NCBI GenBank assembly: GCA_977017645.1
Contig: OZ360222.1
Coordinates: forward strand, 129,766,001-129,830,000
DNA: 64,000 bases
From: Torpedo marmorata
Lineage: Eukaryota
Direction of reading: 5' to 3'
Below, in pieces: positions 3,982 to 56,880 of the stretch (position 1 is the first letter of the stretch; every line of letters starts with the position of its first letter). Below the pieces are notes generated by a model. That model ran no database searches. It had not been told where the DNA came from and saw only the letters and a list, made by a program, of their open reading frames with translations. The translations under genes were made by a program, and so were the position numbers.

Positions 3982-6384
3982 CGCGGGAGACACATGGGAA
4001 GCCGTCGCAAGCACTGCTGTAGAAGGCAGACGCATGGAAAATAGGCTGGCATCAGGGTTAGACTGAGAGTTAACCCCTTCAGACCTGCACTCCCGACGAT
4101 CCTTCTCTCAAATGTAAGATCACTGGAGAAGAAAATGGATTACCTGAGGCTGCAGCTGAACCAGAGAGAACTGCAGGTCTGCTGTGCTCTGGTGATTACA
4201 AAAACGTGGCTCCAGGACACCATTCCAGACTCAGCAATCCAGCTGGATGGCCTTATCTCCTTCAGGGCAGACAGAGACGCTGCTGCTTCTGGCAAGACTC
4301 GAGGACGGGGACTGTGCATTTACATCAATGAGAACTGGTGCACAAATGTCTCTGTTGTGAAGACCTTCTGAAGATAGAGGACCTCCTGGTGAAATGCAGA
4401 CCCTTCTACCCGCCCAGGGAATTTTTAGCCACACTACTGCAGTCTACATTCTGCCTTCGGCTAATGAGGGTGAAGCCATGAAGGAGCTTTACAGTGCCAT
4501 CTGCGAATCCCAGGCTTCCCACCCTCACGGTGCCATGATTGTTGCTGGCGACTTCTATCACGCCATCCTGAAAACAGTCTTACCACGGGTTAAACAGCAT
4601 GTGAACTTTGCCACCAGAGGAGAGAACACCCTGGATCGGGTGTACACTAACGTCCCTGGTGCGAACAAGGTTGCACCTAGCCCCCACCTTGGTTAGTCGG
4701 ATCACATATCTGTCCTGCTACCCCCGGCGTTCAGACCGCTGGCAAAGCAAACGAGGTCAGTTCGCAGGGAGATCAGGACATGGCCGGGGGGGGGGGGGGG
4801 GGGGGGGAGGGGTGGGGGGGAGGGGAGGGCCACAGCAGCGCTGCAAGACTGCTTTGAGACCATGACTGGATCTGTTTCAGGGAGGCAGCCACCAACATCG
4901 GTCATGTAAGCATTGAGGAGTACACGAGTTCAGTGACTTGCTACATCCGAAAGTGCATTGAGGATGTCACCGAGATTAAATGCTTCACAACCAGGGATAA
5001 CCAGAAACCATGGTTGGATGCAGAGGTCCGGGCTCTTCTCAGAGCTCGTGATGCTGCCTTCAGGACAGAGGATAGAATGGTACTAAAATCAGCCAGGGCT
5101 GAACTCTCCTGTGCAATCCGGAAGGCAAAGCGTGGGTACACACAGAAGATCCACAGACAGCTGTGCGACACCGGCGACATGAGGCGCATATGGCAAGGGA
5201 TCAGACTATTACGGATCACAAGTCAACCTTGCGAATTAAGGACAATGACGCCTCCCTTCCGGACAGACTGAACGCCTTCTATGCACGGTTTGATGAGAAG
5301 AACAAGATGATGCCAAAGAAAGCTCCGTATCCTCCTGATGAACGGGCCCCCCACATAGCGCGGCCGAGGTGAGAAGGATCCTATCCAAGGTGAACCCACA
5401 CAAGGCGGCGGGACCAGACAACATACCTGGTTGGGTACTGAAGGACTGCACAGACCAATTGACGGAGGTCTTCACGGACATTTTTAACACCTCACTGCAG
5501 CAGTCCATAGTTCCCGCAGGGTTCAAGAAAGCCTCATATTCCAGGCTGCTGTTCATTGACTTCAGCTCAGCGTTTAATACGATCATTCCCCAGAGGCTGG
5601 TGGAGAAGCTGGCCTCATTGTGACTCAACGCCCCTCTCTGTAATTGTATTCTGACCACAGTCTGTCCGGGTCGGTAGCAGAATATCGAGCAACTTCACGT
5701 TGAGCACTGGCAGACCTCAAGGCTGTATGCTCAGCCCACTCCTGTTCACGCTACTGACAAATGACTGCATCGCCAGATCCAGCTCCAATAGTGTCTTCAA
5801 GTTTGCAGATGACACAACAGTAGTTGGCCTCATCAGCAACAACGATGAGTCGCACTACAGAGAAGAGGTGGAAAATCTCTTGAAATGGTGCGAGAGTAAC
5901 AACCTGAGTCTTAACGTGCACAAGACGAAGGAGATGATCATGGACTTCAGGAGGACAAGGAACAACCACCCTCCACTACACATCAACAACTCTGTAGTAG
6001 AGAGAGTGGACAGCACCAGGTTCCTTGGAGTTCACTTAACTAGTGACCTATCGTTGACATTCAACATCTCCTCATTTGTCAGGAAGGCGCAACAGCGACT
6101 GCACTTCCTGAGAAGACTGAAGCGGGCAAGGCTACCGGCCACCATTATGTCAACCTTCTGTCGGAGCTCTATCGAGAGCATCCTGGCCGGCTGCATTACA
6201 GTGTGGTACGCTTGCTGCAGAGAAATGGATCGGAGGTCAATCCACAGGACCATAAGAGTGGCAGAGAGGATCACTGGAATCTCCCTCCCCACCATCGATG
6301 TGATCTTCTAGGATCGTTGTCTGAAGAGGGCGTGCAAAATCATTGAGGACCCTTTCCACCCTGCACACAGTATCTTTCAGCTGC

Positions 6385-8179: not shown

Positions 8180-8960
8180 CATTAACTAGTACAGTGCCAC
8201 AGGGATTGCTCCTGGTGCCCAAGTTGTTCACAATCTATATTAATGATTGGAACAGTGCAAGGAGATGGCCTTGCATACATCTGGAATATTATGTGCAAGT
8301 CAAGTTTCCATATATAAGAAAGGATATATTTAAATTAAATTAAATTAAATGTTCACTAGATTGATTCCTAGGATTGCAGATATGTCATTTGAGGAGAGAT
8401 CACGTAAACTGGGCTTACACTTGACTGAATTCAGAAGAATGAGAGGTGTGAAATATTGGATCCAATAGGTTCAGCAATGATCTGATTGAATGGTTGAGCA
8501 GGTATGAGGCAGGCAAGTGACCTGTTCCTGTGTGTGTTCTAAACCTAAATAAAGCACAATTAGTTTTAAATGAGCTGGATGATAATGTAGTCCAGACTTT
8601 GATATGTCTGGGTATGTCTAGAGAACTGAGAGATAGTTGTCATCATGAAAGAATGCAAAGGCTGAATTATTTTCTCCCGAAAAGGAAAAGGTTAATGGCA
8701 AGTGGCTTCACAGGAAAGATGTGGAAAGTGGGTTAAGACAAAGGAACATAAAATTCAAAACAATCAATACATTTCATGGAGAATTCAAGAGAAAGTCGAC
8801 CCATTGAGTGGTGAGAATGTGAAACCTGTGATCACAAGTAGTAATTTAGGCAAACTGCATGGACACATTTAAAAGGACATTGGATAAAGCCTTGAGAGAG
8901 AAAAAGGAATGGAAGAACTCTTCAGGTGAGAGAATGAAAGGTGGGAGTAGGCACCTTTGA
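8180..8960 (+). mobile_element. Old degraded CR1-like fragments
   Basis: Residual motifs (TSTVPQG...LFTIYIND, LEYYVQ, RRMRG) and CR1-like 3' sequence; heavily deleted. Confidence 0.5.
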
Positions 8961-9861
8961 AGTATAAATGGATCATTTAGGGTGCCTGGTTTCTTTGCTG
9001 CAAACCCTGTTAACTGAATGGGAGAGCAGAGCATGATTCCATGCATCTTCCAGTTTCTACAATCAGATTTCTCCAAAGAGTTTATTAGGTTTTCCAAATC
9101 ATTATGATATGTTTCACTCCAGAATCACAGAAATGTATCTCTTGATTGATCCACATGCAGGTAGTAGTGTCCAAATGTCTGGACACGTATACTCCAAGTC
9201 AAGGACAGAATAACTGTGGTCTTTGCAATATAACAGAAGAAGTGAGAATGTTGAACAATTTAATATTACTTTGACTACTCCAAAGTCCTTCATTGGAACA
9301 TTCTTTCAGTGGTGAGTGCGACCCAGGAAAGTTGCAATGTTGCCTTTGTTCAACTTGCTCCAAATCAGTACAAGATTTCTTGACATTATGAATTCTATTT
9401 AAGTCTCAACATTACATTAAGCACTACTCCGCAGGAACCAGCACCTGCAATGCAAAAAGTGACTAATTAAAGCTACACTCTTAAAAAAGAATCGAGGCAC
9501 AGTATGTAATATTTTCACCCCTAACACTTGCATACAAATTAGCTTGATACAGGGGATGAAGAACTCATCTTGATCACTTTCAAAGTGTTCTCTTAGTGAG
9601 ATTAAATTAGGCATCTCATTCCAAGATGTTATTAAACCTACCTCTAAATGACATTTGCAAAGTGTGCTTAGAGTCCAAGCAATTTTCAGATGAAACTTAA
9701 ATTGTTTTCTAATTGGAGGCAGGGCTAGAACTACCGTATATTTCGGCGTATAAGTCGACCCTTGAAACCCTCAAAAATGTCTCAAAAAACGGGGGTCGAC
9801 TTATACGCCGGATATACTTTTGAGACCTTAAATTCAGCTCAAAATCGAGTTCACGCCGATC

Positions 9862-9945
9862 CGGCGTATAAGTCGACCCCTGAAAACACGATTCGGCGTA
9901 TAAGTCGACCCCTGAAAACACGATTCGGCGTATAAGTCGACCCTT
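9862..9945. repeat. 32-bp tandem repeat (~2.6 copies) containing the TIR inner motif
   Basis: cggcgtataagtcgacccctgaaaacacgatt units start at 9862, 9894 and 9926. Confidence 0.9.
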
Positions 9946-10013
9946 GAAAAACCAAAAAAAAACCCGACTGCAACAAATTTTCATTGACATTTTAATTGAA
10001 AACAACAAGACAT

Positions 10014-11351
10014 TTAGAACCCTTCAAAATCACTTTCGCTATCATCGTCTGAGGCAAAGATCTCGGCAAGCACATCCGGGGTCTCACTGTTTAAACAGTC
10101 ATCGTACGGGTCCCAGTCTGTATCTGATGAGGCGTCTTCAGCTTCGTCGTCAGTGTCCCACAATAAATCATCTTCCGTACCATCAATTGCACAAGAGATA
10201 CCGCACTTTTTAAATGATTTTATTATAGTCTCTACTTTCACTTTGTCCCATGCCTTGAGCACGAAGTCACACAGCACATCAAGCGATGCAGCACACATTG
10301 CCCCGCCTTTTGTAAATGATTTTTCTGCACTCGTCATCCATGTATTCCACTCTTCACGCACGTGGTCTTTGAATGGCTTGTTCAAGCAGACATCGAGAGG
10401 TTGCAATATAGACGTCAAACCACCCGGGATAACCGCCATGTGAGTATTATGTTGTGCTAATCTACTTTTAGTCTTCTCAGTTAAGTGGCTACGAAACATA
10501 TCCCAGACCAGCAAACTCCGTTCCTTGCGTAAACCGCCTGGCCGCCTGTTCCACACATTGTCTATCCATAGTTTTACACCATTTTCATCCATCCATCCTT
10601 TTTCATGAAAATGTACAAAAATACCTGCTGGGAAATTTATTTTAGGTTTAAGTTTGCGCTTGAAGATTACCATGGGTCTTAACTTTGTCCCGTCGGCCAT
10701 GCACGATAACGCCACAGTAAACCTGGTCCTTTCATGTCCTGTACTCCTGGTTTGCACAGTTTTCACACCTTTCCATTCCACTGTTCTATTGCCTATCATG
10801 TCAAAATTCATGGGGGTTTCGTCCATGTTTCCAATATTTGCCAATGCAAACTTGTGTTTCTTCCGGTTACGTAAAATAAACTGGTGAAAACTTACAAGTT
10901 TATGATCAAGATCTTTTGGTAGTTTCTGAGCAATTTTAGTTTTTTGTCGTAATACCAGATTTTTCCTGTTCATAAAACGGTTGCACCAGCCTACTGAAGC
11001 TTCAAAATCATTACTGAGTTCTGGGTGCGACTTTGCCCAGTTCAGTGCAAATGTTCTTATTTTATTTCGGGTGACTATGTAGCAATCTTGCCTCTGTTCA
11101 CATACCCATGCTGCTACATGATTTTCCAACTCTGGCCAACGAGTGATTCCTCTTCTCATGGAACATTGCCTTTTTGGTATTTTTCTTAAAGTATCTTCTT
11201 TCTTCCTCCAATCTCTTACCAACTTCTCATATATATCAAATTTTCTTGCAGCAGCACAGTTGTTGGTTTATTTGGCCATTTCTATTACTTTCAATTTAAA
11301 ACTCGCCTCATACTTTCGTCGTTTCAATTGAGCCTTCAATGGAGCCTCCAT
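10014..11351 (-). pseudogene. pogo/Passer transposase (Brinker-like DBD, CENP-B HTH, DDE_1, acidic tail), 445 codons with a single in-frame TAA at 11268-11270
   Basis: ATG at 11351 is in frame with the 402-aa ORF: MEAPLKAQLKRRKYEASFKLKVIEMAK*TNNCAAARKF...; catalytic NMDETP, LVWD and QPLD with 35 residues between the last two Asp. Confidence 0.9.
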
Positions 11352-11377
11352 GATAACAATCACCTCCAGCCAATGCC

Positions 11378-11700
11378 CAGCAGCTCAATGATCGCGATCA
11401 TTGTGGGTCGACCTATACGCCGGTCAACGGCCAGCAGCTCAATGATCGCGATCGTTGTGGGTCGATCTATACGCCAGTCAACGCCCAGCAGCTCAATGAT
11501 CTCGATCGTTGTGGGTCGATCTATACGCCAGTCAACGGCCAGCAGCTCAATCATCGCATTTTTTGAGGGTCGACCTATACGCCGGTCAACGCCCAGCAGC
11601 TCAATCATCGCGTTTTTTGAGGGTCGACTTATCCGCCGGTCAATGCGCAACATCTCAGGCATCGCGTTTTTTGGGGGTCGACTTATACGCCGGATATACC
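11378..11700. repeat. 54-bp tandem array (~6 copies) in the transposase 5' region, each containing the TIR inner motif
   Basis: cagcagctcaat starts at 11378, 11432, 11486, 11540 and 11594; each unit has gggtcga(c/t)(c/t)tatacgcc. Confidence 0.9.
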
Positions 11701-14700
11701 ATAAAACCATTAAAATGAGGCTGAAAAAGGGGGGTCGACTTATCTGCCGGTCGACTTATACGCTGAAATATACGGTAGTAATTCTGTAACTGCAAAGGGG
11801 AATTCAGGAGAAACTTCTTCACACAGAATCATGTTAAGAATGTGGAATTTATTACACACACGATCAGTTGAAATGAGTGGTATTTTTGAAGTTATGAAGA
11901 AGATGAATAAACACCAAAGGGAGGAAAATAAAACATGATGAGACTTTGCTACATTGAGGTGAAGGGTGCTGAAGGCTCAAATGGAACAAACAGAAGCATA
12001 AATGAGTTCAGCCAAGTGATCTGTTTAGGTTCTACAATTATTTTGTTATATTGCAAAAATATTTTCAGGATAATTTTAATACACACTATTGGATCACCTA
12101 ATTCTGAAGTTGGAATATAGCCTTTCGGCCACCTGTTGCACCGCTGTTTCTTCCCATCCATTTTCTTTGTAAATTTGAACTCATCCAAAATGTTACAACT
12201 TGTAACCTTACTCATTGCAAGTCCTGCTTACCCATTGATCCTGTTTGCTGACTAGCATTGTGTTCTGGTAAAGAAATGTCTCAATCTCATCCCATTTTTC
12301 AAATCCCTCCTCGGTTTTCATCCATCCCTGTCTCTGTTATCTCCTTCAGCCCTAAAACCTCAAAAGGTGTTTGGGCTCCTTCAATTCAATGTAGCCAATT
12401 TTAATTATTCTGCCATTCCTGTGCATGCCCTCAGCTGGCAAGTCCTTTAGATTTGCGATTCTTTCTTTCAACCCCCCCGTCTGTGTTCTCATGCACCAGG
12501 GAAAACATCTTCCACACATCTGTCAAATTTTTTCAACATTTTCAGGACATCTATTAAATTATTCCATCTGCCTTGCAGAGGTTTCACCTCAAACAGTGCA
12601 GCTCAAGCAACAAGTGAAGGGCTTTGTAATCGGAGGCCACATGGTTCATCAGGCCTGCTCTATCCAGAAACCAGAGGTAGAAATTCAATTGTGTATGAGT
12701 TACATGTACATCATGGCACGAGACGTGAGCTATACTCCAATGCAATTCTCCTGAAGGAAAAAATAACTGAAATCAGAAACTCCTCAAAAATTGTTGAGGC
12801 AGGGAATTAAACAAAATGTTCAAAACTTAGCTAGAGTATTAAAGGTAATGAAACAAAGGCAGTAAGTTAAAATTCAAAGACAAATAAGGCATGAACTAAT
12901 GGAATGTCAGAACAAATATTTAGACATACAGCACGTTAACAGGCCATTTCGGTATGAGGGACCTCTTCTGGATACTTGTTCCACGTTTCTAAGACTTTGT
13001 TAGAGGAAACTTATTTCATATTTTCAGACATTATCCAAGGGTTTTGAACTTTGCACTTGTGCCCTCTGGACCCCTGCCTGTGGTTCAAGATGAATTACTT
13101 GTTTATTTCCACTTTATCTTGGCCTTCCATTACTTTGAATGCCAGGATCATGTTTCATCTTGGTGTGCATTCCCAAGTGAAAATAAGTTAATTGCTCACA
13201 TTTTACTCAAATTCCTCTTAATTTGAACCCCTTCTGGTGAATTATTTTTGATGTAGTGCATCCCAAACTGGAAACTTTACCTGAGAGCCCACTGGATATT
13301 GTTCTATTCATTGATTGCATGATTTGTTCTGATGCGTATTCTAGCATGTTCACAAGATGCACTTCAATACTGAATTCTAATCTGAACAATCTCCTACTAA
13401 TCAAATCTTTCTAGAGAGACCATCTATCATTTTCCCCAAATCCTTTCTTTTGTCTTTTTATTGAATGTTTGCTGAAAAGAATCAGATTAAATGCTGGACA
13501 AATTCAATTCAATATGCTATTTCTCAGCTCATATGCATAGTTGATTTGATGTGAAGATAACCGATATCCCTTTCTAGTCATGGTATGTCAAATGGCTTTG
13601 TTCTATTAGTTACATGACAGTTAATTTGTTCCATATCATAAAAAATTTCTATAAATATGCATCTGAGATTTATTTTACTCAAAATGCACCTTTTCTCCTT
13701 GTTAGCAGTCTATCTTCTGATGCCAGACCAATTCTTATCCATCTTAATTTATTAGCTTTAAGAAAAAAATTTCAATCTTTTGGGTAATGGATGTGTGAGT
13801 GAATGACATTTCCCAAATTTGACTTGATCAGTTCCTTATGAACAAAACGTCAAAGACACCTTCACTATCAACGAACATCAAGCAGCTGACATCCAGTAAT
13901 ACTCGTGTCAGCAACATCTGATAACAAATGAGGGAACTCTTGGCTCCTAAATAATCCAGCATTTAGGTTTTCCAGCAACATTTCATAAGGAAGTAACAAT
14001 CTAAACGCGACTTAGGAAAAAAATATATACTGCAGGAACAAAATGAAGATATGGATTGCCCACAGGCTCTGTAGTGTGATTCAGCAAGCCTTCTGCAGAA
14101 AATAACGGTGAAGCGCATATTTGAACAAGCATCTGAGGAATAGAAGGGTGGGGGTATTCAACAGTACAGGGATCAGGAAGAAAGGAACTCCACAGGGAGA
14201 AACAGTGTGTGAAGCTTCACTGAGCTTCCTGTATCAACTTCTCAGACTGAAATCTGAGCTGTGGCATACTATTTTCTCATGGAAGTTTGAAATGAACATT
14301 TGAAACATTTAGGATTTTTACTCTGGTAGCTCCACTCAAAGTTGTTGAGAGAACCTTTTGCCCTTTTAAAAGACTCATTCACATTTCAATAGCTTGCTGC
14401 CTCGCAAAATACTACTATTTGTTCATCAATGCACTTAATTAAGCACTTCTTCACTCACACTACGAGAACTAATGTTTATTTTTGTTGATTGGACATTACT
14501 GAAGTGACGACAAAACAAGTGAGTGCAGAATTGAGAACGAAGGACTTTGGGAAAGCTAAATCAATGACAGAACTGAGATTTAAAAATCATGTCAACTTTG
14601 GTATTTCTAATATTATAGTAACTACTGTATATGTAGTATAGTACTTTTTAAAAAAGACGCCCAACATCAAAATAAATAAACCAATGAATGCTGATGACAC

Positions 14701-15834
14701 CATCTGGGGAACAAGCTCGTTAGAGTTGTTTAGCCTGGCAGTGGGAAAGTGCTAAAAAAAATATGCACAGAGAAGCTGAATTATCCAAGGTTAATGACCA
14801 TCTCTGTGGATGTTAGTTTAGCTCCTCACACTGTCACCAAGATTAATATAAGCAATTTAAAAAATCTAAAGAACAAAGAAAGAGATAAAAGAACATTATA
14901 AATGATAATCTCACAATCTGTCAGACAGGTCCACACCTGTGTTCAACAATTATTTAATTGTTAAAGTTATCAAAGGCTTTTGTTCCTTGAATGGCAATAT
15001 GCCAAACTATAACATACCTGCATACCAGTTTTGTTCACTGTTCTGCTGTAAAATAAAAATGACAACATCGAAGAAACTACTTATTCTATGACTTCAATGG
15101 GTTATCTGCATTCCTTATCAAATAATATAGAGTTCCATTGAAGAAATATAGAGTTCCATTGCAGAAAACATGAGTGATTTGATTAAAGTTCAGAATTCTG
15201 ATTCTGATTTGATTAAAGTTACAGGATAAATCTCATGTTACTTTCAATATTTTTCTCTGCATTTCATGAAATATTAGGGCAGATGCAGGGTAATGAAAAG
15301 TGTGAAAGTACGTGTCCCAGTGAACATTCATCCCACAATCAAAATTTCTGAACATGACGTTGACGATTGTGGAATATTGTTGTGCAAACTGCCAAATACT
15401 TTGCCAGGAACATTTCTGAACTCTATTATTTTATCTTACTGAGGTATAAATTAAGGTTTTGTTTTAAGGATAATTTAATAACTAATGTAATAATATTTCA
15501 GTTACTTAAATTGAACAGAAGAATCAAAAAGGCTAGTGAACTAGCTTTCAAAATGAAATCAGGCAAGTATTAAAGAATGGAATATAACTGGGAGTTCACT
15601 GGAAACTATACTAATGATTGTACAGAAAATTAATTAATGTTTCAGACAGCAAATGCTGGTCATATGCTTTCCATTCAATTCAATCAGAGTAAGAGAGGAT
15701 AACTGGAATCACTTTGGGGGCAGGGGGAGGGGAATACAATTTGGTTATGTGACTGTTGCAAACTCCTGCTTTTTCTGAGTTGTTTTTCTGTGGAATTACA
15801 ACAAATCAATATGTTTTAAGTTACTCTCAAGCTT

Positions 15835-18464
15835 GATAATGATGGGTTTTCATCAGAATTTTATAAAGAATTTAAAGATTTATTGATACTTCCATATATG
15901 GAGGTATTAGATCAAATTACGGAAACTCATTTATTACCGAAAACATTTTTAAATGCTATAATTACAGTTATACCAAAGAAGGATAGAGATGTATTAAAAA
16001 CTGAATCATATAGACCTATTTCATTATTAAATGTAGATTATAAAATAATGGCAAAAATTTTAGCAAATAGAATGGCTAAATATTTGCCAGATTTGGTACA
16101 TCTAGACCAAGCTGGTTTTATTAAAAATAGATATTCAAAGGATAATATAGCTAGATTAATTAGTTTAATTAGTTTGCATAAAAAGAAACAAGATTTACCA
16201 TTAGTTGTAACATTAGATGCTGAAAAGGCATTATTTAAGGTATTAGAAAAATTTGGTTTTGGAAATACATTTATAAATTGGATTAAAACTATATATAAAG
16301 AACCATCAGCTAAAGTAATTACAAATGGACAAATATCGCCAATATTTTCTTTGACACGTTCTACGAGACAGGGATGTCCCCTGTCACCAGCTTTATTTGT
16401 TTTGGCGACAGAAACTTTGGCTGAATTAGTTAGAAAAGATCCTAAAATAGTGGGTATTAAAGTTGGTATGGAAGAACATAAGATTAGTTTGTTTGCAGAT
16501 GATGTATTGATATATATGACAAAGTCTATTATATCACTTCAACAATTATCTATTATATTAAGAGAATATGGTGAAATATCTGGATATAAAATTAATTCAG
16601 ATAAGAGTGAAATAATGGCTTTATCTCAAGGTGATTACACTAGATGTAAAGAAATTACACAATTTAAATGGGCTAAAGAAGGAATTATTTGGGGGTTAAG
16701 GTTGATACAAAATTGGAAAACTTGTATAAATTAAATTATCTACCATTATTTGTGAAAATAAAGAAAGATTTAGAGAATTGGAAAGATTTACCCATAACTT
16801 TAATGGGAAGGGTAAACTGTATTAAAATGAATATATTTCCAAGAGTTCAGTATCTTTTTCAATCAATTCCTTTTGGAATTCCTCAAAAAATTTTTAAAGA
16901 TTTAAATTTTATTATTAGGAAATTTTTATGGAAAGGAAAGTTAGCAAGAGTAAGCATGGAAAAGTTAACCTGGAATTATGAGCTGGGTGGATTGCAACTT
17001 CCTAATTTTCAAAATTATTATAAAGCAGCCCAATTAAAATTTGTTAATGAATTTTTTGATTCAACTAAAACTTCTGCTTGGATTAAAATATAATTAAATA
17101 ATATAGGAGAAAATTTTAAAGAAGAGATTATTTATAAATGGGATTCTAAATTCATATCAGTAAAAAAGAAAAATTCACCGATTATTAAGCATTTGTTAGA
17201 AATATGGGGTAAGATGGATAAAGAGATAGGTGGAAGAGGATTAATTTCTTCAAATATGCCATTATACCAAAATGGACTTATATCATTTACTGTTAATAAT
17301 CAGTTATTTGAAATTTGGTCTCAAAAAGGTATTAAGAAGATTAATGATTGTTTTGAAGCTGGAAAATTTATCACGTTTCAAAGAATGAAAGATAAATTTA
17401 ATATATTAGATAATACATTTTTAGCTTATCATCAAGTTAAAGCTTTTTTAACTGAGAAATTAGGTCATGCTTTGATTTTACCAAGACAAAATGAATTAGA
17501 ATTATTAATTACTAATGGAGAAGTTAATAAATTTATTTCTCAAATGTATAAATTGTTTCAGAGGAAAATGCCTAAAATAGGACTGCATAAATCAAGATTA
17601 AAATGGGAATTAGATTTAAATGTAAATATAGATGAAAATCATTGGAAAGATTTATGTAAGTTAAGTATGACGAAAATTATTAATGTTAGATATAGATTAG
17701 TACAATATAATTTCTTTCATCAATTATATTTAACACCTAAAAAATTAAAGAAATTTAATCCGACATTATCAGGATTATGTTTTAGATGCAATAATGAGGA
17801 AGGTTCTTTTGTTCATTCTACATGGTTTTGTCCAAAGATTCAAGATTTTTGGTTGAAAGTTAAAAAAAATTTTGGATAAAATATTTAATATTACATTTCC
17901 AATGGACCCTATGTTATTTTTATTTGGAGATATTAAAAAATTTAGTATTAAAAAGAAATTAAATATGTTTCAAGTAGAATTTTTACGAATTGCTTTAGCG
18001 GTTTCGAAAAAATGCTTGGAAAAATTACTTGGAAATCTGACTTAGATTTAGGATTAGAAAGATGGCATGCAGAGCTCCGTTCGTGTATACCACTGGAAAA
18101 AATTACTTATAATTTACGTAATAAATATCTTTTTTTTTGTGGAAAATTTGGAGCCCATATATGAGAGCTGTGGGTTTAGGGATTTGAAGATCTCTAGATA
18201 TCGGATCTACTGGCACATTTGACCTCCGTAATAGAATTAGTTTATAGATGATATTCCCCTTATTCTATCTTTTCCTTTCTTTCCTTTTTCTATTTTTATT
18301 TTTACTTTTACTTTATATTACTAGATTAGTGGGGATGAAGGGGTTAAGGAGGGGAGGGAGGTGGGGGGGGTGAAAATGTATCACATGTATTTTGACAATT
18401 TTATATTTTATTTTATGTATTTTGTGATTTTAAAGTTTAAATAAAATTTTAAAAAAATAAAAAA
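15835..18464 (+). mobile_element. 5'-truncated, very AT-rich L1-clade LINE (ORF2 RT + C-terminal Cys-rich domain)
   Basis: YRPISLLNVDYKI, QAGFI, RQGCPLSP, FADD and CFRC...H...C motifs across ORFs 15883-16734, 16689-17093 and 17193-17879; G-rich 3' UTR, AATAAA and poly-A; probable TSD aagctt (15829-15834, 18465-18470). Confidence 0.93.
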
Positions 18465-19769: not shown

Positions 19770-22700
19770 TTAGAACCATAGAACGCAACAGCACAGAAAA
19801 TAGGCCATTCAGCCCTTCTAGTCTGTGCCGACCATTATTCCGCTAGCCCCATTGACCTGCTCCCACTCCATAACCCTCGACCTCTCCCATCCATGTATCT
19901 ATCCAATTTATTCTTAAAACTTTAGATCGAGCCTGCATTCACCACATCAGATGGAAGCTTATTCCACACTTTCCCCTAATTTTCCCCCTAAACCTTTCCC
20001 CTTTCAGCTTAAAACTATGACCTCTCATATTTATCTCCCCAATCTAAGTGAAAAAAGCCTACTCGTATCCACTTTGTCTATACCTCTCATAATCTTGTAA
20101 ACCTCCATCAAATCTCCCCTCATTCTTCTTCGCTCCAAGGAATAAAGGCCTAACCTGTTTAATTTTTCCCTGTAACTCAACTCCTGAAGACCTAGCAACA
20201 TCTGAGTAAATCTTCTCTGCACTCTTTCAATATTATTGATATCCTTCCTGTAATTAGGCGACCAGAACTGCACACAATATTCCAAATTTGGCCTCACCAA
20301 TGTCTTAAACAACTTCAACATAACATCCCAACTCCTATACTCAATACTTTGATTTATAAAGGCTTAGATGCCAAAAGCTTTCTTTACAACCCTGTCCACC
20401 TACAACGCCACCTTCAGGGAACAATGTATCTGTATTCCAAGATCTCTTTGCTCCTTCGCACTCCTCAGTGCCCTACCGTTTACTGTGTATGTCCTACCTT
20501 GGTTTTCCCTTCCAAAATGCAACACCTCACACTTGTCTGCATTAAACTCCATCTGCCATTTTTTGGCCCATTCCAGTTGGTCCAGATCCCTCTGCAAGCT
20601 TTGAAATCTTCCTCGCTGTCCACAATGCCTCTTATCTTTGTGTCATCAGCAAACTTGCTGATCCAATTTACCACATTATTATCCAGATCATCGATATAGA
20701 CAACAAACAACAATGGTCCCAACACAGATCCCTGAGGCACACCACTAGTCACAGGCCTCCAGTCTGAGAAGCAACCATCCACTACTACTCTCTGTTTTCT
20801 CCCACAGAGCCAATTTTGAATCCAGTTTACAACCTCTCCGTGGATACCTAGTGTCTTAACCTTCTGAACTAACCTCCCATGTGGGACCTTGTCAAAGTCT
20901 TTACTAAAGTCCATGTAGACAACATCCACAGCCTTTCCTTCATCTACCTTCTTGGTAACCTCCTCGAAAAACTCTACAAGATTCGTTAAACACGACCTAC
21001 CATGCACAAAGCCATGCTGACTGTCCTTAATCAGCCCATGGCTGTCCAAATACCTATATATCCTATCTCTCAGAACTCCTTGCAATAATTTACCTACTAC
21101 TAACGTCAGGCTCACTGGCCTATAATTACCTGGTTTATTTTTGAAGCCTTTTTTAAGCAACGGGACAACATGAGCTACCGTCCAATCCTCTGGTACCTCA
21201 ACCCGTGGCTAAGGACATTTTGAACATATCTGCCAGGGCCCCTGCAATTTCTACACTAGTCTCCCTCAAGGTCCGATGGAATATCATATCTAGCCCGGGT
21301 GATTTATCTACCTTTATTCGCTGCAAGGCAGCAAGCACCGCTTCTTCCTTAATCTCCATATGTCAAGTCAAGTCACCTTTATTTGTCGTTCATTACCATA
21401 TACACAATAAGATGAGATAGTGTTTCTCCAGGACCATGGGCAAATGTACATAAATATCATAATACAATAAAAAACTATAACATGCTAATACACATATATA
21501 TATAAAAATTGAGGAGCCTGATGGCTTGGGGGAAAGAATTGTTGCACAATCTGGACGTACGAGCCCGAATGCTTCAGTACCTCCTTCCAGATGGCAAAAG
21601 GGAAAAAAGTTTACAAAAGGAGTGTGAGAAGTCCTTCACAATGTTATTAGCCTTCCTCATGCATCGTGTGTTGTAGATGTCCGTTATGGTGGGAAGAGAG
21701 ACACCAATAATTTTCTCCGCTGACCCCACTATCCTCTGCAGGGTCTTTCGGTCCGAGATGGTACAGTTTCCAAACCAAGTGGTGATGCAATTTCTCAGAA
21801 TACTCTCAATACATCCCCTGTAGAATGTAGTAAGGATAGAGGGTGGAAGATGAACTTTCCTCAACCTTCGCAGGAAGTAAAGACGCTGCTGGGCTTTCTT
21901 GGCTATCGATCTGGTGTTGAGGGACCAGGTGAGATTCTCTGCCAAGTGCACTCCAAGAAACTTGGTACTCTTTACGACCTCAACGGTAGAGCTGTCCATG
22001 GTCAATGGAGAATGATCCCCCCGGGCCCTCCTGAAGTCGACAACCAACTCTTTTGTTTTATTTACATTTAGATGCAGGTTGTTGGCTCCGCACCATTCCA
22101 TTAGCGACTGCACCTCATCTCTGTATGCTGACTCATCGTTCTTGCTGATAAGGCCCACCACGGTTGTATCATCAGCAAACTTGATGATGTGATTCGAGCT
22201 GTGTTTTGCTGAACAGTCATGAGTCAGCAGAGTGAACAGCAATGGACTAAGCACAAAGCCCTGGGGAGCTCCCGTGTTCAATGTAATGACCTTAGAAGTG
22301 CTGTTTCCAATCCAGACTGCCTGAGGTCTTCCCGTCAGGGAGTCTAGAATCCAATTACAGAGGGTGTTGTTTAGTCCCAACCCGCTCAACTTCCCTATCA
22401 GGTACTGAGGTATGATCGTGTTGAATGCCGAGCTGAAATCAATAAACAGCATTCGAACATACGCGTCCTTATTTTCCAGGTGGGTGAGGGCTAGATGGAG
22501 GGTGGTAATGATGGCATCATCCGTAGAGCGGTTTGATCTATATGCGAACTGCAGGGGGTCCAGTGAGGGGGGCAGCAGAAGCTTGATGTGCCCCACGACG
22601 AGCCTCTCGAAGCACTTCATGACAGTAGATGTGAGTGCGACAGGGCGGTAGTCATTGAGGCAGGACACCGTCGACTTCTTCAGCACGGGGACGATGGTAG

Positions 22701-24065
22701 CGGCTTTGAAGCACGTTGGAACCACGGCACTGCTCAGGGAGATGTTAAAGATGTCGTTGAGAACATCTGCCAGCTGGGCCGCACAGCCTCCATGACACTT
22801 CTGTTTGTTTTCCTTCCTTATTCACTATGCCAGTTTCCTGACTAAATACTGATGCAAAAAAACTGTTTAAGATCTCCCCCATTACGTGAGGCTCCACACA
22901 TAGTTGACCACTCTGATCCTCTAGGGGACCAATTTTGTCCCTTACCATCCTTTTACTCTTAATATACTTGTAGAAACCCTTTGGGTTTACCTTCACATTA
23001 TCTGCCAAAGCAACCTCATGTCTTCTTTTTGCCTTCCTGATTTCCTTCTTGAGTATTATCTTGCATTTTCTGTACTCTTCAAGTACCTCATTAGCTCCTT
23101 GTTGCCTATACTTGCTATACACCTCCCTCTTCTTCTTAACCAGATCGCCAATATCCCTTGAAAACCAGGGTTCCCTATGCCTGTTAACTTTGCCTTTAAT
23201 CCTAACAGGAACATGCAAACTCTGCACTCTCAAAATTTCGCCTTTGAAGGCCATCCACTTACTTAACACACCCTTGCCAGAAAACAACATATCCCAATCC
23301 ACTCTTCCTAGATCCTTTCTCATTTCCACAAAATTTGCCTTCCTCCAAATTAGAATCCCAACATGAGGACCAGACTTATCCTTTTCCATAATTAACTTGA
23401 AGCTAATGACATTATGGTCACTCGACCCAAAATGTTTGCCTACACATACATCTGTCACCTGACCTGTCTTGTTCCCTAATAGGAGATCAAGTACTGCATC
23501 CTCTCTCGTTGGTACCTCTATATATTGATTTAGAAAACTTTCCTGAACACATTTCACAAACTCGAAGCCATCCAGCCCTTTCACAGTATAGGAGTCCCAG
23601 TCAATATTTGGAAAGTTAAAATCTCCTTCTATCACAACTTTCTGCTTCTTCCATCGGTCTGCTATCTCTCTACAGATTTGCTCCTCCAATTCTCTCTGAC
23701 TATTGGGCGGTCTATAATACAACCCTATCAGTGTGTTCACACCTTTCCCGTTCCTCAACTCCACACATATGGCCTCTGTAGACAAACCCTGCTGGCTGTC
23801 CTGACTTCGCACAGCTGAAATATTTTCCCTGACTAGCAATGCCACTCCTCCCCCTTTCATCCCTCCCCCTCTATCACGTCTGAAGCAACAGAACCCCGCA
23901 ACATTAAGATGCCAGTCCTGCCCCTCCTGCAACCAAGTCTCACTAATAGCAATAATGTCGTAATCCCACGTGTCAATCCATGCCCTAAACTCGTCAGCCT
24001 TTCCAACAATACTCCTTGCATTAAGATAAATACACCTGAGAAAATTTCTATCCACTTTGCCTTTT
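19770..24065 (-). mobile_element. Long CR1 LINE ORF2 (APE + RT), interrupted at ~21363-22787
   Basis: ORF 22745-24094 APE (YLNARSI, SETWL, YYRPP, GDFN, SDHN); ORF 20480-21160 RT (NYRPVSL, QHGF, DFSKDFDKV, GVPQGSVLGP, FADD); C-terminus 20031-20321; tail at 19770. Confidence 0.95.
21363..22787 (-). mobile_element. 5'-truncated Rex1/Babar LINE inserted in the CR1
   Basis: Open 383-aa RT ([41 protein letters not shown]); reverse-complement tail (tcaag)n...tttatt at 21362-21385. Confidence 0.93.
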
Positions 24066-24719
24066 GACTTTTTCTTTAAAAGTACGTTACGCATTATTAT
24101 AATGAGTTTTCAAGTGAACCAGATAACTTGAAAGGCAGCACAGGAACCAGGGCCCCAGTGAGTGAGAAGGGAGTCACCAGATACTGAACTATGGGGATTT
24201 CAGAATCACTGGATAGTGGATTATTGGAGTTGTACTTTATTTTATAAAATGGCATTTTATCATAGTCACATTATTACAAGAGTCTGTCTTATCTTACACA
24301 GTTATTTTTGCCACATATATTTTATAATCTCAAAAGATTGCAAACATTCAAGAGTAAAATCAAGCCCTGGCTCATTTCTGTGAGGCAACAACTACCTGTG
24401 CCACAAAACTTAGTGAATGTGGATTTCTGAAGCTGTGAGGCGGCAGCTCCACAAGATGCACCACTGTGCCCTCCTTTCATTGCAATGACTAATGCAGATA
24501 CTAAAGGTAACTGAAGGTCACGACATAAAACCAAAAGTAATAGATACAAGAAGATAAAATAGTGAAGAGGTAGGCGATAAACAAATACGTATAGCAGAAA
24601 CTAGTTGGGCTGAAAGCAAAAGTATATTCCTTCACACAACAATTTATTAAATGTCCCCTGAGTCAGTGAAGAAAATATCAGCAATCCATCAGTACTGGCA
24701 ACTGTTAATACATTTTGAT

Positions 24720-27675: not shown

Positions 27676-28656
27676 TGGCCTGGCCCCCTCTGTCCCCAGA
27701 CACAACAAACACAGGATTCCCTTCGTCCTGACCTACCACCCCACCAGCCTCCACATCCAACACATTATCCTCCATAATTTTCGGAACTTACAACGTGATC
27801 CCACAACCAGAAAAATCTTCCCCTCTCCTCCCCTCTCTGCCTTCCGTAGAGACCGCTCCCTCTGTGCCTCCCTCGTGCAGTCATCCCTCCCCACCAATAC
27901 CCCACCCCCCCGGCACCTTCCCCTGTGGCCGTAGGAAGTGCCACACTTGTACCCACACCTCCTCCCCCACCACAGTTCGGAGAACCCAAATAGGCCTTTC
28001 AAGTGAAGCAACACTTCACTTGTGTATCCGCGGAGTGATTTACTGCATCCGGTACTCCCTTTGTGGCCTTCTCTACATCGGAGAGACTGGTCAAAAATTG
28101 GGAGATCACTTCGCTGAGCAACTTTACTCTGTCCCCATCAGTGACAGGGATCTCCCAGTGGCCAACCATTTCAATTCCACGTCCCACTCCCATACTCACA
28201 TGTCTGTCCATGGCCTCATGTACTATCCCATCAAGACCATCCGTAAATTGGAGGAACAACACTTGATTTTCCGTCTGGGCACTCTACAGCCGGATGGCAT
28301 TAGCATCGACCTCTCCATTTTCTGCTAACCTACTCGCCATTCTCCCTCCCTTCCCTTCCCCTTGTCTTCTTTTCCTCAGCTCTCCACCCCCTTCCCTCTC
28401 TATTCACCAAGCCATCCCTCCTCCACCTGCTTGCTTCAGTGCCCTCCCTCCCTTCTCCCTCCACCTATTACCTCCTGCCTTTGGGACCATACTCCTCATC
28501 CCACCCCTCCCCCCTTACCTTTTTGTTCGGACGCTGCCAACATTTGTCCATACCTTAATCAACGGCTCAAGCCTGAAACATTGGTTATGTATCTTTATCT
28601 TTGCTATATAAAGGATACTGTTTGACCTGCTGAGTTTCTCCAGCATTGTGTTTTTA
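27676..28656 (+). mobile_element. 5'-truncated Penelope-like element (GIY-YIG endonuclease region + tail)
   Basis: IPFVLTYHP, PCGRRKCHTC, VIYCI..CGLLYIGETG, VANHF, LEEQHLIFRLGTLQPDG; 11-bp TSD cttcctgtggc (27665-27675, 28657-28667). Confidence 0.92.
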
Positions 28657-54880: not shown

Positions 54881-54924
54881 TTTTAAAGGATTAAATGTGC
54901 TGCCAATCAAAAACACCCTTGAAC

Positions 54925-56880
54925 ATGACCAGCAAGATCTCAAATTGGTTTACGTGGGCTGGCATAGGATTATTTCTTGGACTAATGATGAAGACAGTCA
55001 CTGTGGAATCATGTCCCTCAGTATGTCGGTGCGATCGAGGTTTTGTGTATTGCAATGACAGAGGGTTAACATCTATACCTACTGGCATTCCCGAGGACTC
55101 CACAACCCTTTTCCTACAGAACAATCATATTAAAAATGCTGGAATTCCAAGGAAGCTCCTGACCTTAGTTAAGGTGGAAACTATTTACTTGTACAGAAAT
55201 AGTCTGGATGAATTTCCCACCAATATACCAAAATACATTAAAGAACTTCACTTGCAGGAAAACAATATAAGGGCAATCTCCTTGGATTCCCTTTCCAAAA
55301 TACCCTATTTGGAAAGGCTGCATTTGGATGATAATTCAGTATCTGCCGTTAGCATTGAAGAAGGCGCCTTTCAAGAGAGTAAATATCTCAGATTAATTTT
55401 TTTGTCAAGGAATCATCTCAGCAGTATACCCTTTGGACTCCCCAACACTATTGAAGAGTTAAGATTGGATGACAATCGTATTGCCACGATTTCAGAGGAT
55501 GCCCTGAGACAGCTTACTGGCCTGAAACGTTTGGTATTAGATGGGAACTTGCTAAGCAACCAAGGGCTCCAAGATAACGTTTTCAATAACCTTGTGAACC
55601 TTATAGAGTTGTCTCTTGTACGCAATGTTCTTACTTCTCCCCCAATTCTACCCATAACAAGCTTACAGAAGCTCCACCTTCAAGAAAATCATATTAATTT
55701 GATCCCCACCAATGCCTTTTCCTATCTGAGACAATTACATCGGTTAGACTTGTCTAATAATAATTTAACCCACTTGCCTCAGGGAATCTTTGATAATCTG
55801 AATAACCTAACCCAGTTGTTACTCCGCAACAACCCCTGGTATTGTGGCTGCAAAATGAGGTGGGTTCGGGATTGGCTTCGCTCACTTCCAACCGGTGTCA
55901 ATGCCCGTGGGCTGATGTGCCAATCACCTGAAAAAGTTAGAGGCATGGCTATTAAGGACCTTGCAGTTGCAATGTTTGGCTGCAAAGAAATCACCTCAGA
56001 AACTATCCTCACCTCCACATCACGCACCCCTGTAACTTCAGTTCTGTTACCAGCCACACAAGGACAATGGCCTTCATTTGAAACGAAACAGCCATTTGGG
56101 AAAAAAAGACACCATGGTTACTACCATCCTACAGATGTTCCTGGGGGCATAGCTGTGCGACTCAGTGTGGAATCTGTGAGTGTAGATACTATTCATATCA
56201 CCTGGAAGACATTCCTGCCTCTGACGGCACTCAGGCTCAGCTGGCTCAAGATGGGACATAATCCTGCATTGGGATCTATTACTGAAACCATTGTGCACAG
56301 TGAGAGAAGTGAATATTTACTTACAGCCCTTGAACCCGAGTCGTTCTATCGCATCTGTATGGTTCCCATGGAAACCAGCAATGTGTATCTGTTGAATGAG
56401 ACCCCAGTCTGCACAGAAACAGAGACTGCGTCTCTGAAGACACACAACCCTACAACCACCCTTAACAGGGAGCAGGAGAAGGAACTTTACAGAAAGACAA
56501 GCCTGACTTTGGCAGGCATCATAGGGGGTGCGGTGGCTGTCGTGGTAATCGCTTTACTCGCACTGGTCTGCTGTTACTTACACAGAACTGGAACCCCTTT
56601 CTCAAAGAATTGTGTGTACAACAGAGGGCGGAGAAGGAAGGATGATGATTATGCAGAGGCCGGAACTAAAAAAGACAACTCAATTTTAGAAATCAGAGAA
56701 ACTGCATTTCAGATGATTCCAATGAACAGTGAGCAAGCAGTGAAAGAAGAATTTGTAATACACACTATATTTCCACCGAATGGGATGAGTTTGTACAAAA
56801 ACAACCACAGTGAAAGTAGCAGTAGCAACAGAAGCTACAGGGACAGTGGAATACCAGATTCAGATCACTCACACTCGTGA
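54925..56880 (+). CDS. FLRT3: Leucine-rich repeat transmembrane protein FLRT3 (signal peptide, LRRNT, LRRs, LRRCT, FN3, TM, cytoplasmic tail); in-frame upstream ATG at 54895
   Basis: Intact ORF; [63 protein letters not shown] and the terminal [14 protein letters not shown] match the recalled vertebrate FLRT3; 54925 has the better Kozak context (A at -3). Confidence 0.97.

Follow-up and report, generated by a model that had tools for sequence, protein, structure and literature searches.

A stop-broken Passer transposon of Torpedo marmorata belongs to a high-copy family that likely also mobilized the 5′ end of DMRT1

The stretch of DNA analyzed here, referred to as the window, comprises 64,000 nucleotides from the electric ray Torpedo marmorata (assembly GCA_977017645.1, contig OZ360222.1, positions 129,766,001–129,830,000 of the forward strand) and contains, at positions 9734–11775, a DNA transposon of the Passer group of pogo elements. 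A preliminary description, made from the letters alone, presented this element as one codon away from an intact transposase, very recent, possibly horizontally acquired, and a candidate for resurrection as a gene-transfer tool. The locus raises the question of whether the element is a special, nearly intact relic or one of many related copies, and of what such a family has moved in this genome. Our analysis makes it very probable that the window element is a full-length but stop-broken member of a high-copy Passer (pogo, DD35D) family, whose transposase likely also mobilized a partner carrying the 5′ end of DMRT1 and marked by a 23-mer found at 8,727 sites.

Structure of the window element

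The element is 2,042 bp long, lies on the − strand, and is flanked by TA target-site duplications at 9732–9733 (its 3′ side) and 11776–11777 (its 5′ side); the contig of a relative joins both flanks directly, as described later. Inverted arms at 9730–9760 and 11749–11779, which include these TA dinucleotides, are 97% complementary and yield 27-bp terminal inverted repeats (TIRs) with one mismatch. The 3′ TIR (9734–9760) agrees with the family majority, and the 5′ TIR (11749–11775) carries one change relative to it. Inside the TIRs are subterminal tandem repeats, which comprise six units of 54 bp with degenerate TIR-core motifs on the 5′ side (11371–11693) and 2.9 units of 32 bp containing the TIR-core motif on the 3′ side (9857–9950). 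The number of 54-bp units differs among subfamilies. These repeats are likely to be extra transposase-binding sites.

The transposase frame (10014–11351) runs from an ATG at 11351 to a TAA ending at 10014, spans 445 codons with an acidic C-terminal tail, and contains a single internal stop, a TAA at codon 28 (11270–11268). Near the start codon, a 12-bp duplication (11319–11342) distinguishes the 445-codon subfamily from a more diverged 441-codon subfamily, and the single contig of organism B that covers this region has the short form. The observed/expected (o/e) ratio of CpG is 1.08 inside the element versus 0.36 in the rest of the window.

Coding state and fold of the transposase

Three Pfam domains score above cutoff: a Brinker-type DNA-binding domain (BrkDBD, PF09607; residues 11–56, 11184–11321), which is split by the stop in the window copy and reaches E 1e-14 on intact siblings; a CENP-B-type DNA-binding domain (HTH_Tnp_Tc5, PF03221; residues 72–135, 10947–11138), which also matches the CENP-B structure 1hlv; and the catalytic domain (DDE_1, PF03184, E 3e-29; residues 209–380, 10212–10727, span taken from an intact sibling). 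The catalytic residues D177 (10823–10821), D284 (10502–10500), and D320 (10394–10392) are all present, with 35 residues between D284 and D320 (DD35D), and are kept in 38, 39, and 40, respectively, of 40 aligned homologues. Apart from the stop, the window copy differs from the family majority by five missense changes (R84C, V152L, V214A, T297R, and R353C); position 214 is V in 38 of the 40 homologues. The predicted model of an intact sibling (mean predicted local distance difference test score, pLDDT, of 77) has a fold that resembles Mos1, SETMAR, and Sleeping Beauty. The best matches are to Mos1 (Protein Data Bank, PDB, entries 5hoo, 4u7b, and 3hot; E 1e-9 to 9e-8, 12–14% identity), although the Mos1 mariner transposase belongs to a different superfamily branch.

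The features that define Passer occur together here: the DD35D triad, BrkDBD plus HTH_Tnp_Tc5, a TA duplication with TIRs below 30 bp, and one open reading frame (ORF) within the range of 400–500 residues in an element within the range of 1.6–4.0 kb. Likeness to published Passer (PMC7386202, PMC9976928) extends to TIRs that start with CCGTA and to a palindromic, AT-rich target, and the combination of BrkDBD with HTH_Tnp_Tc5 is given for Passer and not for Fot, Tigger, pogoR, or Lemi in Gao 2020 (PMC7386202). The window TIR matches that of Latimeria PasserC at 25 of 27 positions, and a Latimeria protein is 66% identical. A quick tree of 49 rows, including 48 of 120 listed homologues selected by rank, name, and length (≥380 aa), was built without labelled family references or outgroups. 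The preliminary description holds as regards the TA duplications, the 27-bp TIRs with one mismatch, the 445-codon frame broken only at codon 28, the intact triad, the retained CpGs, and the Passer identity, the last on the combined features rather than on the tree.

Passer-type proteins (P0003, P0008, and P0093) were also observed in the newt Pleurodeles waltl; Caudata are given as lacking Passer in Wang 2023 (PMC9976928). Passer proteins of newt, rattlesnake, and softshell turtle form a tight clade in the quick tree, and horizontal transfer among these three is possible.

Size, intactness, and age of the family

The genome is 6.2 Gb in size. The exact 29-mer of TA plus TIR has 8,568 + 8,495 = 17,063 genome matches and its control has none, so the ends of the window element are not a matter of chance. 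A transposase-internal 22-mer, chosen for its conservation in the sample, has 9,008 matches (control, 0), a number that is a lower bound. In a DNA search of the genome, the best 40 of 3,517 candidates were scored, all of them near full length and 98–99% identical. Thirty copies, namely the window copy and 29 siblings, were selected by likeness to the window copy. The siblings are 98.3–98.8% identical to it, and all 29 have AAA (lysine) at codon 28; 21 lack any internal stop, and 19 run from ATG to stop with all three catalytic Asp residues (DDD). Siblings without the stop, for which the preliminary description proposed to search, abound and are little diverged. "One codon from intact" is a misleading description, because the stop is private to the window copy and comes with five missense changes, and resurrection loses its point with 19 naturally open siblings at hand and native active Passer transposases already published (PMC9976928). 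Rather than a near-intact relic of special standing, the window copy is one ordinary member of the family in decay.

A position-ordered sample was taken from the first 100 TIR hits on C1, which correspond to 70 sites. Eight sites with a single TIR within reach were excluded, leaving 62 elements with both TIRs, of which 24 are of autonomous type and 38 lack a transposase. TA flanks both sides in 61 of the 62, and the target has A at −5 in 51/62 and T at +5 in 51/62 (A-W-N-TA-N-W-T), a pattern similar to the AAGTACTT consensus reported for Passer in fish (PMC9976928).

The 30 top-ranked copies lie 0.54–1.08% from their own majority (window copy, 0.68%). Private coding changes are near neutral, with 96 nonsynonymous or stop changes to 33 synonymous ones (ratio approximately 0.73), whereas changes common to at least three copies are constrained (10:10, approximately 0.25; Fisher p 0.034), as expected for copies dying after insertion from constrained source elements. 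CpG sites decay 3.4 times faster than other sites, which entails that the retention of CpGs reflects only youth. Orthologous flanking DNA was found in three of six read sets compared, which therefore stem from relatives; the other three have no cover of the flanks, and two of these cover the element alone. A contig of organism C joins both flanks without the insertion, with 36 differences over approximately 650 flank bases, and organism F is probably empty too, given a unique contig that reaches 2.3 kb past the junction. The insertion therefore postdates the splits from these organisms.

Three copies with look-alike flanks (L008, L009, and L178) sit at the same position of one host repeat. Segmental duplication was rejected as the cause, because the copies belong to different subclades and the flank is a repeat seen also without the insertion; these are thus independent hits on one favored site. 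Local duplication may genuinely account for the pairs L131/L132 and L124/L125.

A non-autonomous partner carrying the 5′ end of DMRT1

The 38 non-autonomous elements of the position-ordered sample are 676–2,078 bp long and consist of a left end of approximately 100–160 bp, a right end of 150–215 bp, and a non-transposase interior. In all 38, the interior matches the 150 bp before the ATG of DMRT1. The cargo also includes sequence matching DMRT1 intron 1, and part of exon 1 is kept in three elements, which are older copies; one element reads into the start of the DM domain. The donor gene was found by a DM-domain search, with four exon hits across 140 kb at C2:246.427–246.566 Mb and an exon 88–94% identical to batoid (ray) DMRT1 proteins. 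It lies upstream of exons that we take to be DMRT3-like and DMRT2-like. One autonomous Passer and one DMRT1-carrying element were also observed inside the introns of DMRT1 itself (L156/L157 and L160/L161; G000:C2:246.467 and 246.507 Mb).

The number of such elements was assessed with a 23-mer across leader and ATG, in an element variant differing from the gene, which has the 8,727 genome matches mentioned above; a 29-mer from the DM start has 1,901. Both Passer TIRs surround 26 of 30 hits with the DM fragment, with TA on both sides in 24 of these 26. The second half of the DM domain is present in none of the 26 DM-type copies, so that no copy has a whole DM domain, and the DM start is in frame with the ATG in eight of them. 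The sampled non-autonomous elements resemble CpG islands, with a median GC of 56% and a CpG o/e of 1.09. Junction letters of the DMRT1-carrying (Pack) element also occur as loose ends in reads of organisms B and C.

The basal copy L146 is the most complete one. Its alignment to DMRT1 begins 184 bp upstream of the ATG and reaches the first repeat of intron 1, with 339 matches and 26 mismatches; it is interrupted by deletions of 44 bp and approximately 140 bp, and the second of these takes away the remainder of the DM domain along with the splice donor. Since the cargo continues into intron 1, capture was from DNA. Intron 1 (L112:1702–2373) contains a 30-bp GC-rich minisatellite of 22.7 copies, and the Pack element has a 27-bp repeat (6–56 copies; approximately one unit in the basal copy) that is 75–79% like it, which suggests that the two arrays expanded separately. 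Median divergence from the majority is 6.2% for DM-type copies and 1.5–1.7% for the trimmed type, both figures mixing subfamilies; this suggests that the trimmed type spread later, together with the present autonomous family.

Other DM-domain loci and neighboring features

A genome-wide DM-domain search, in which the best 150 of 3,769 candidates were scored, gave at least 87 DM matches. Thirteen of the top 20 hits (L104, L105, L108–L111, and L113–L119) are scattered copies of the first exon of a DMRTA-type gene, comprising the DM domain and the start of the intron, at 87–93% identity to the donor (L103, G000:C2:256478365). Of six copies examined, five are bounded at each end by 15-bp hAT-type TIRs and flanked by 8-bp duplications (three exact, two with one mismatch). 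Passer TIRs, considered as carriers, were not found around these copies. Unlike the DMRT1 cargo, the hAT-borne DMRTA copies could encode whole DM domains. A further cluster of three DM exons (L100 and L107, G000:C22:158.07–158.18 Mb) holds exons that we assume to be DMRT3-like and DMRT2-like, plus a third exon. In layout, it is paralogous to the DMRT1-3-2 cluster on C2.

Elsewhere in the window, an intact single-exon frame on the + strand (54895–56880) is the FLRT3 coding exon, with 98% identity to Narcine bancroftii, 93% to Pristis, and 91% to Mobula, values that suggest an electric-ray host. Frames at 2317–2922, 5655–6311, 15820–17879, 20480–24109, and 27732–28328 are presumably remnants of long interspersed nuclear elements (LINEs) or Penelope elements, judging by their motifs.

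Discussion

The following scenario would account for the two types of element. An intact transposase would use its two helix-turn-helix domains to bind the TIRs and probably also the arrays of subterminal repeats; its DDD core would then excise the element and insert it at TA within A-W-N-TA-N-W-T, where the pattern comes from our sample and the presumed chemistry from Mos1 and published Passer. The empty site and the many distinct flanks bear on such cut-and-paste movement only indirectly. The window copy would have been inserted in this manner and then have decayed like most copies. An older Passer-ended element appears, from the alignment, to have taken up approximately 560 bp of DMRT1 DNA, starting 184 bp upstream of the ATG and ending within intron 1, perhaps through gap repair or template switching, following the models of Tan 2021. 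In later waves, and probably in this order, most of the coding part would have been deleted, the intron-derived repeat would have become a 27-bp minisatellite, and the ends of the younger autonomous family would have been acquired, so that the partner could be mobilized in trans through shared ends. Passer favors insertion close to active transcription starts (PMC9976928), and we speculate that this preference, combined with gonadal DMRT1, made this gene the cargo.

Several points weigh against this account. Siblings picked by likeness overstate intactness, as the position-ordered sample has a full-length frame in only 9 of its 24 autonomous-type elements. The constraint test is weak, with p rising to 0.10 under a looser cut (changes common to at least two copies). 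That all 8,727 23-mer hits lie within TIRs is an extrapolation from samples on one chromosome arm. Finally, neither the 200 kb surrounding DMRT1 nor the window contains a donor for a 3′ cargo segment of approximately 100 bp.

How active, how foreign, and how useful the family is can be judged against alternatives. If the family were transposing today, its natural intact copies could serve for gene transfer without further work. Of 30 copies in the two youngest clades, 27 are indeed open with DDD, and eight copies, each flanked by different DNA, differ from their clade majority by only 2–7 substitutions across 2,041 bp; the window insertion may also be missing from organism A, which has flanks approximately 99% identical, a weak point given that 29 letters before the junction did not align to the TIR. 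However, the 30 young copies include no identical pair (minimum four differences), and the transposases of active fish Passer families reach identities of up to 99.97–100% (PMC9976928, Table 1). At 7e-10 mutations per site per generation, a value from the epaulette shark with a wide interval and from another lineage (PMC10587355), a divergence of 0.10–0.15% corresponds to approximately 1.4–2 million generations. Present-day activity thus seems unlikely to us. For the same reason, the earlier claim of a "very recent" family stands only in a relative sense: siblings at 98.3–98.8% identity are little diverged, yet even the youngest clade is more than one million generations old at the shark rate. 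Recent entry into electric rays by horizontal transfer could be read from a CpG-rich element in a CpG-depleted genome, from the patchy distribution of Passer among animals (PMC9976928), and from 11 organisms that share words with the element, with flanks checked for few of them. We nevertheless regard such entry as quite improbable. Among the listed homologues, the best is 76% identical, with the closest newt, coelacanth, and turtle proteins at 63–66%, so that no near-identical protein from a distant taxon was listed; three of six read sets have orthologous flanks; older subfamilies in the same genome (the 441-codon type, 2–4% away, and basal Pack ends that are approximately 80% alike) point to long residence; and the CpG content reflects youth alone. 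The suggestion of horizontal acquisition in the preliminary description therefore finds no support. A domesticated host gene akin to POGK has next to no probability at this locus, as the TIRs, the TA duplication, a copy number in the thousands, the stop codon, and near-neutral private changes contradict a gene of the POGK/POGZ type, and the empty site of the relative, together with the copy number, refutes it.

A role for the cargo has to be weighed as well: the DMRT1 segment could act as a set of germline regulatory modules, as a small-RNA source or decoy acting on DMRT1, or as an aid to the spread of the element. The segment upstream of the ATG is retained in 38/38 sampled copies while coding parts were lost, and the cargo elements are CpG-island-like. 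Moreover, the DMRT1 capture is common to at least two other organisms, and the first exon of another DMRT gene was captured by an unrelated hAT element. Among bat Helitrons, too, those carrying 5′ gene parts are present in higher copy numbers than others (PMC4224331). Conversely, retention can be explained by simple descent from one founder, and with the second DM half in 0/26 and an in-frame DM start in only 8/26 DM-type copies, the coding part argues against function. Motifs that we take to be GC-box, CCAAT, and E-box-like sequences lie just upstream of the captured DMRT1 stretch, and the capture thus probably did not include the core promoter. All in all, we find a functional cargo decidedly improbable, and the DMRT1 cargo is most likely a passenger, a reading we rate far above the functional one. 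A bolder conjecture, which we consider a long shot, is that the spread of the DMRT1 leader, start, and intron repeat to at least 8,700 sites is the largest known amplification of the 5′ end of one gene by an animal cut-and-paste transposon and is not inert, but gives rise to small RNAs in the germline or to regulatory modules acting back on DMRT1, or confers a germline advantage on the element. Together with the hAT-borne DMRTA copies, DM first exons might then be favored, germline-open targets of capture and a pool from which new sex-determining duplicates arise.

Compared with known systems, the ray family stands out by its numbers. Approximately 9,000 transposase-bearing sites contrast with published Passer maxima of 294 total and 83 intact copies (Wang 2023, Table 1, PMC9976928); the five chondrichthyan Passer rows found there, from six order names looked up (Torpediniformes not among them), list at most one intact copy each. 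The ray family also differs from published Passer by its long subterminal repeat arrays and its gene-carrying non-autonomous partner. This partner has host DNA between TIRs with a target duplication and an identifiable intact donor, and thus resembles the animal Pack-TIRs (PMC8277862), in which host gene DNA, often 5′ untranslated region (UTR), lies between TIRs with distinct target duplications. Of 370 Pack-TIRs in 100 animal genomes, 115 have TcMariner-type carriers and only four are multicopy (Tan 2021, PMC8277862). The multicopy example given there has three copies, compared with 8,727 occurrences of the diagnostic word here; the copy number of the DMRT1-carrying Pack element is far above that of reported animal Pack-TIRs. 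Unlike those, it has subfamilies recording stepwise deletion and repeat expansion, and an autonomous partner with open frames. No DMRT-carrying TIR element was found in the open-access literature, although repeat databases or paper supplements could hold one.

In scale, the bat Helitron HelibatN3-NUBPL (Thomas 2014, PMC4224331) comes closest; it likewise copied the promoter, 5′ UTR, first exon, and partial intron 1 of one vertebrate gene to about a thousand copies, with a 5′ bias. It differs in being a rolling-circle element, in having approximately ninefold fewer copies per gene, and in a cargo that is not a regulator of sex development. In medaka, a DNA transposon (Izanagi) is also linked to dmrt1, as in the ray, but there it was inserted beside the duplicate dmrt1bY and rewired it, whereas in the ray the transposon carries a dmrt1 fragment away (PMC7786948).

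Repair of the window copy would be pointless, as intact natural siblings are abundant, and working Passer tools are already available from stickleback and zebrafish. In this family, Passer has expanded to a very large size within a cartilaginous fish, and open transposase frames number roughly on the order of a thousand (nine full frames at the sites of 62 motif hits, scaled up to 9,008). Its natural intact copies amount to an allelic series from which enzymes can readily be drawn. The DMRT1 partner breaks the near-universal single-copy pattern of animal Pack-TIRs, and the steps of capture, trimming, minisatellite formation, and exchange of ends can be read from its subfamilies. DMRT1 has been repeatedly recruited as a vertebrate sex-determining gene and is male-biased in juvenile shark gonads (bioRxiv 2025.03.13.642935). 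Dispersed DM-domain copies will confound both DMRT annotation and searches for sex markers in these rays, and the spill of transposon silencing onto a captured donor gene in the animal germline becomes directly testable.

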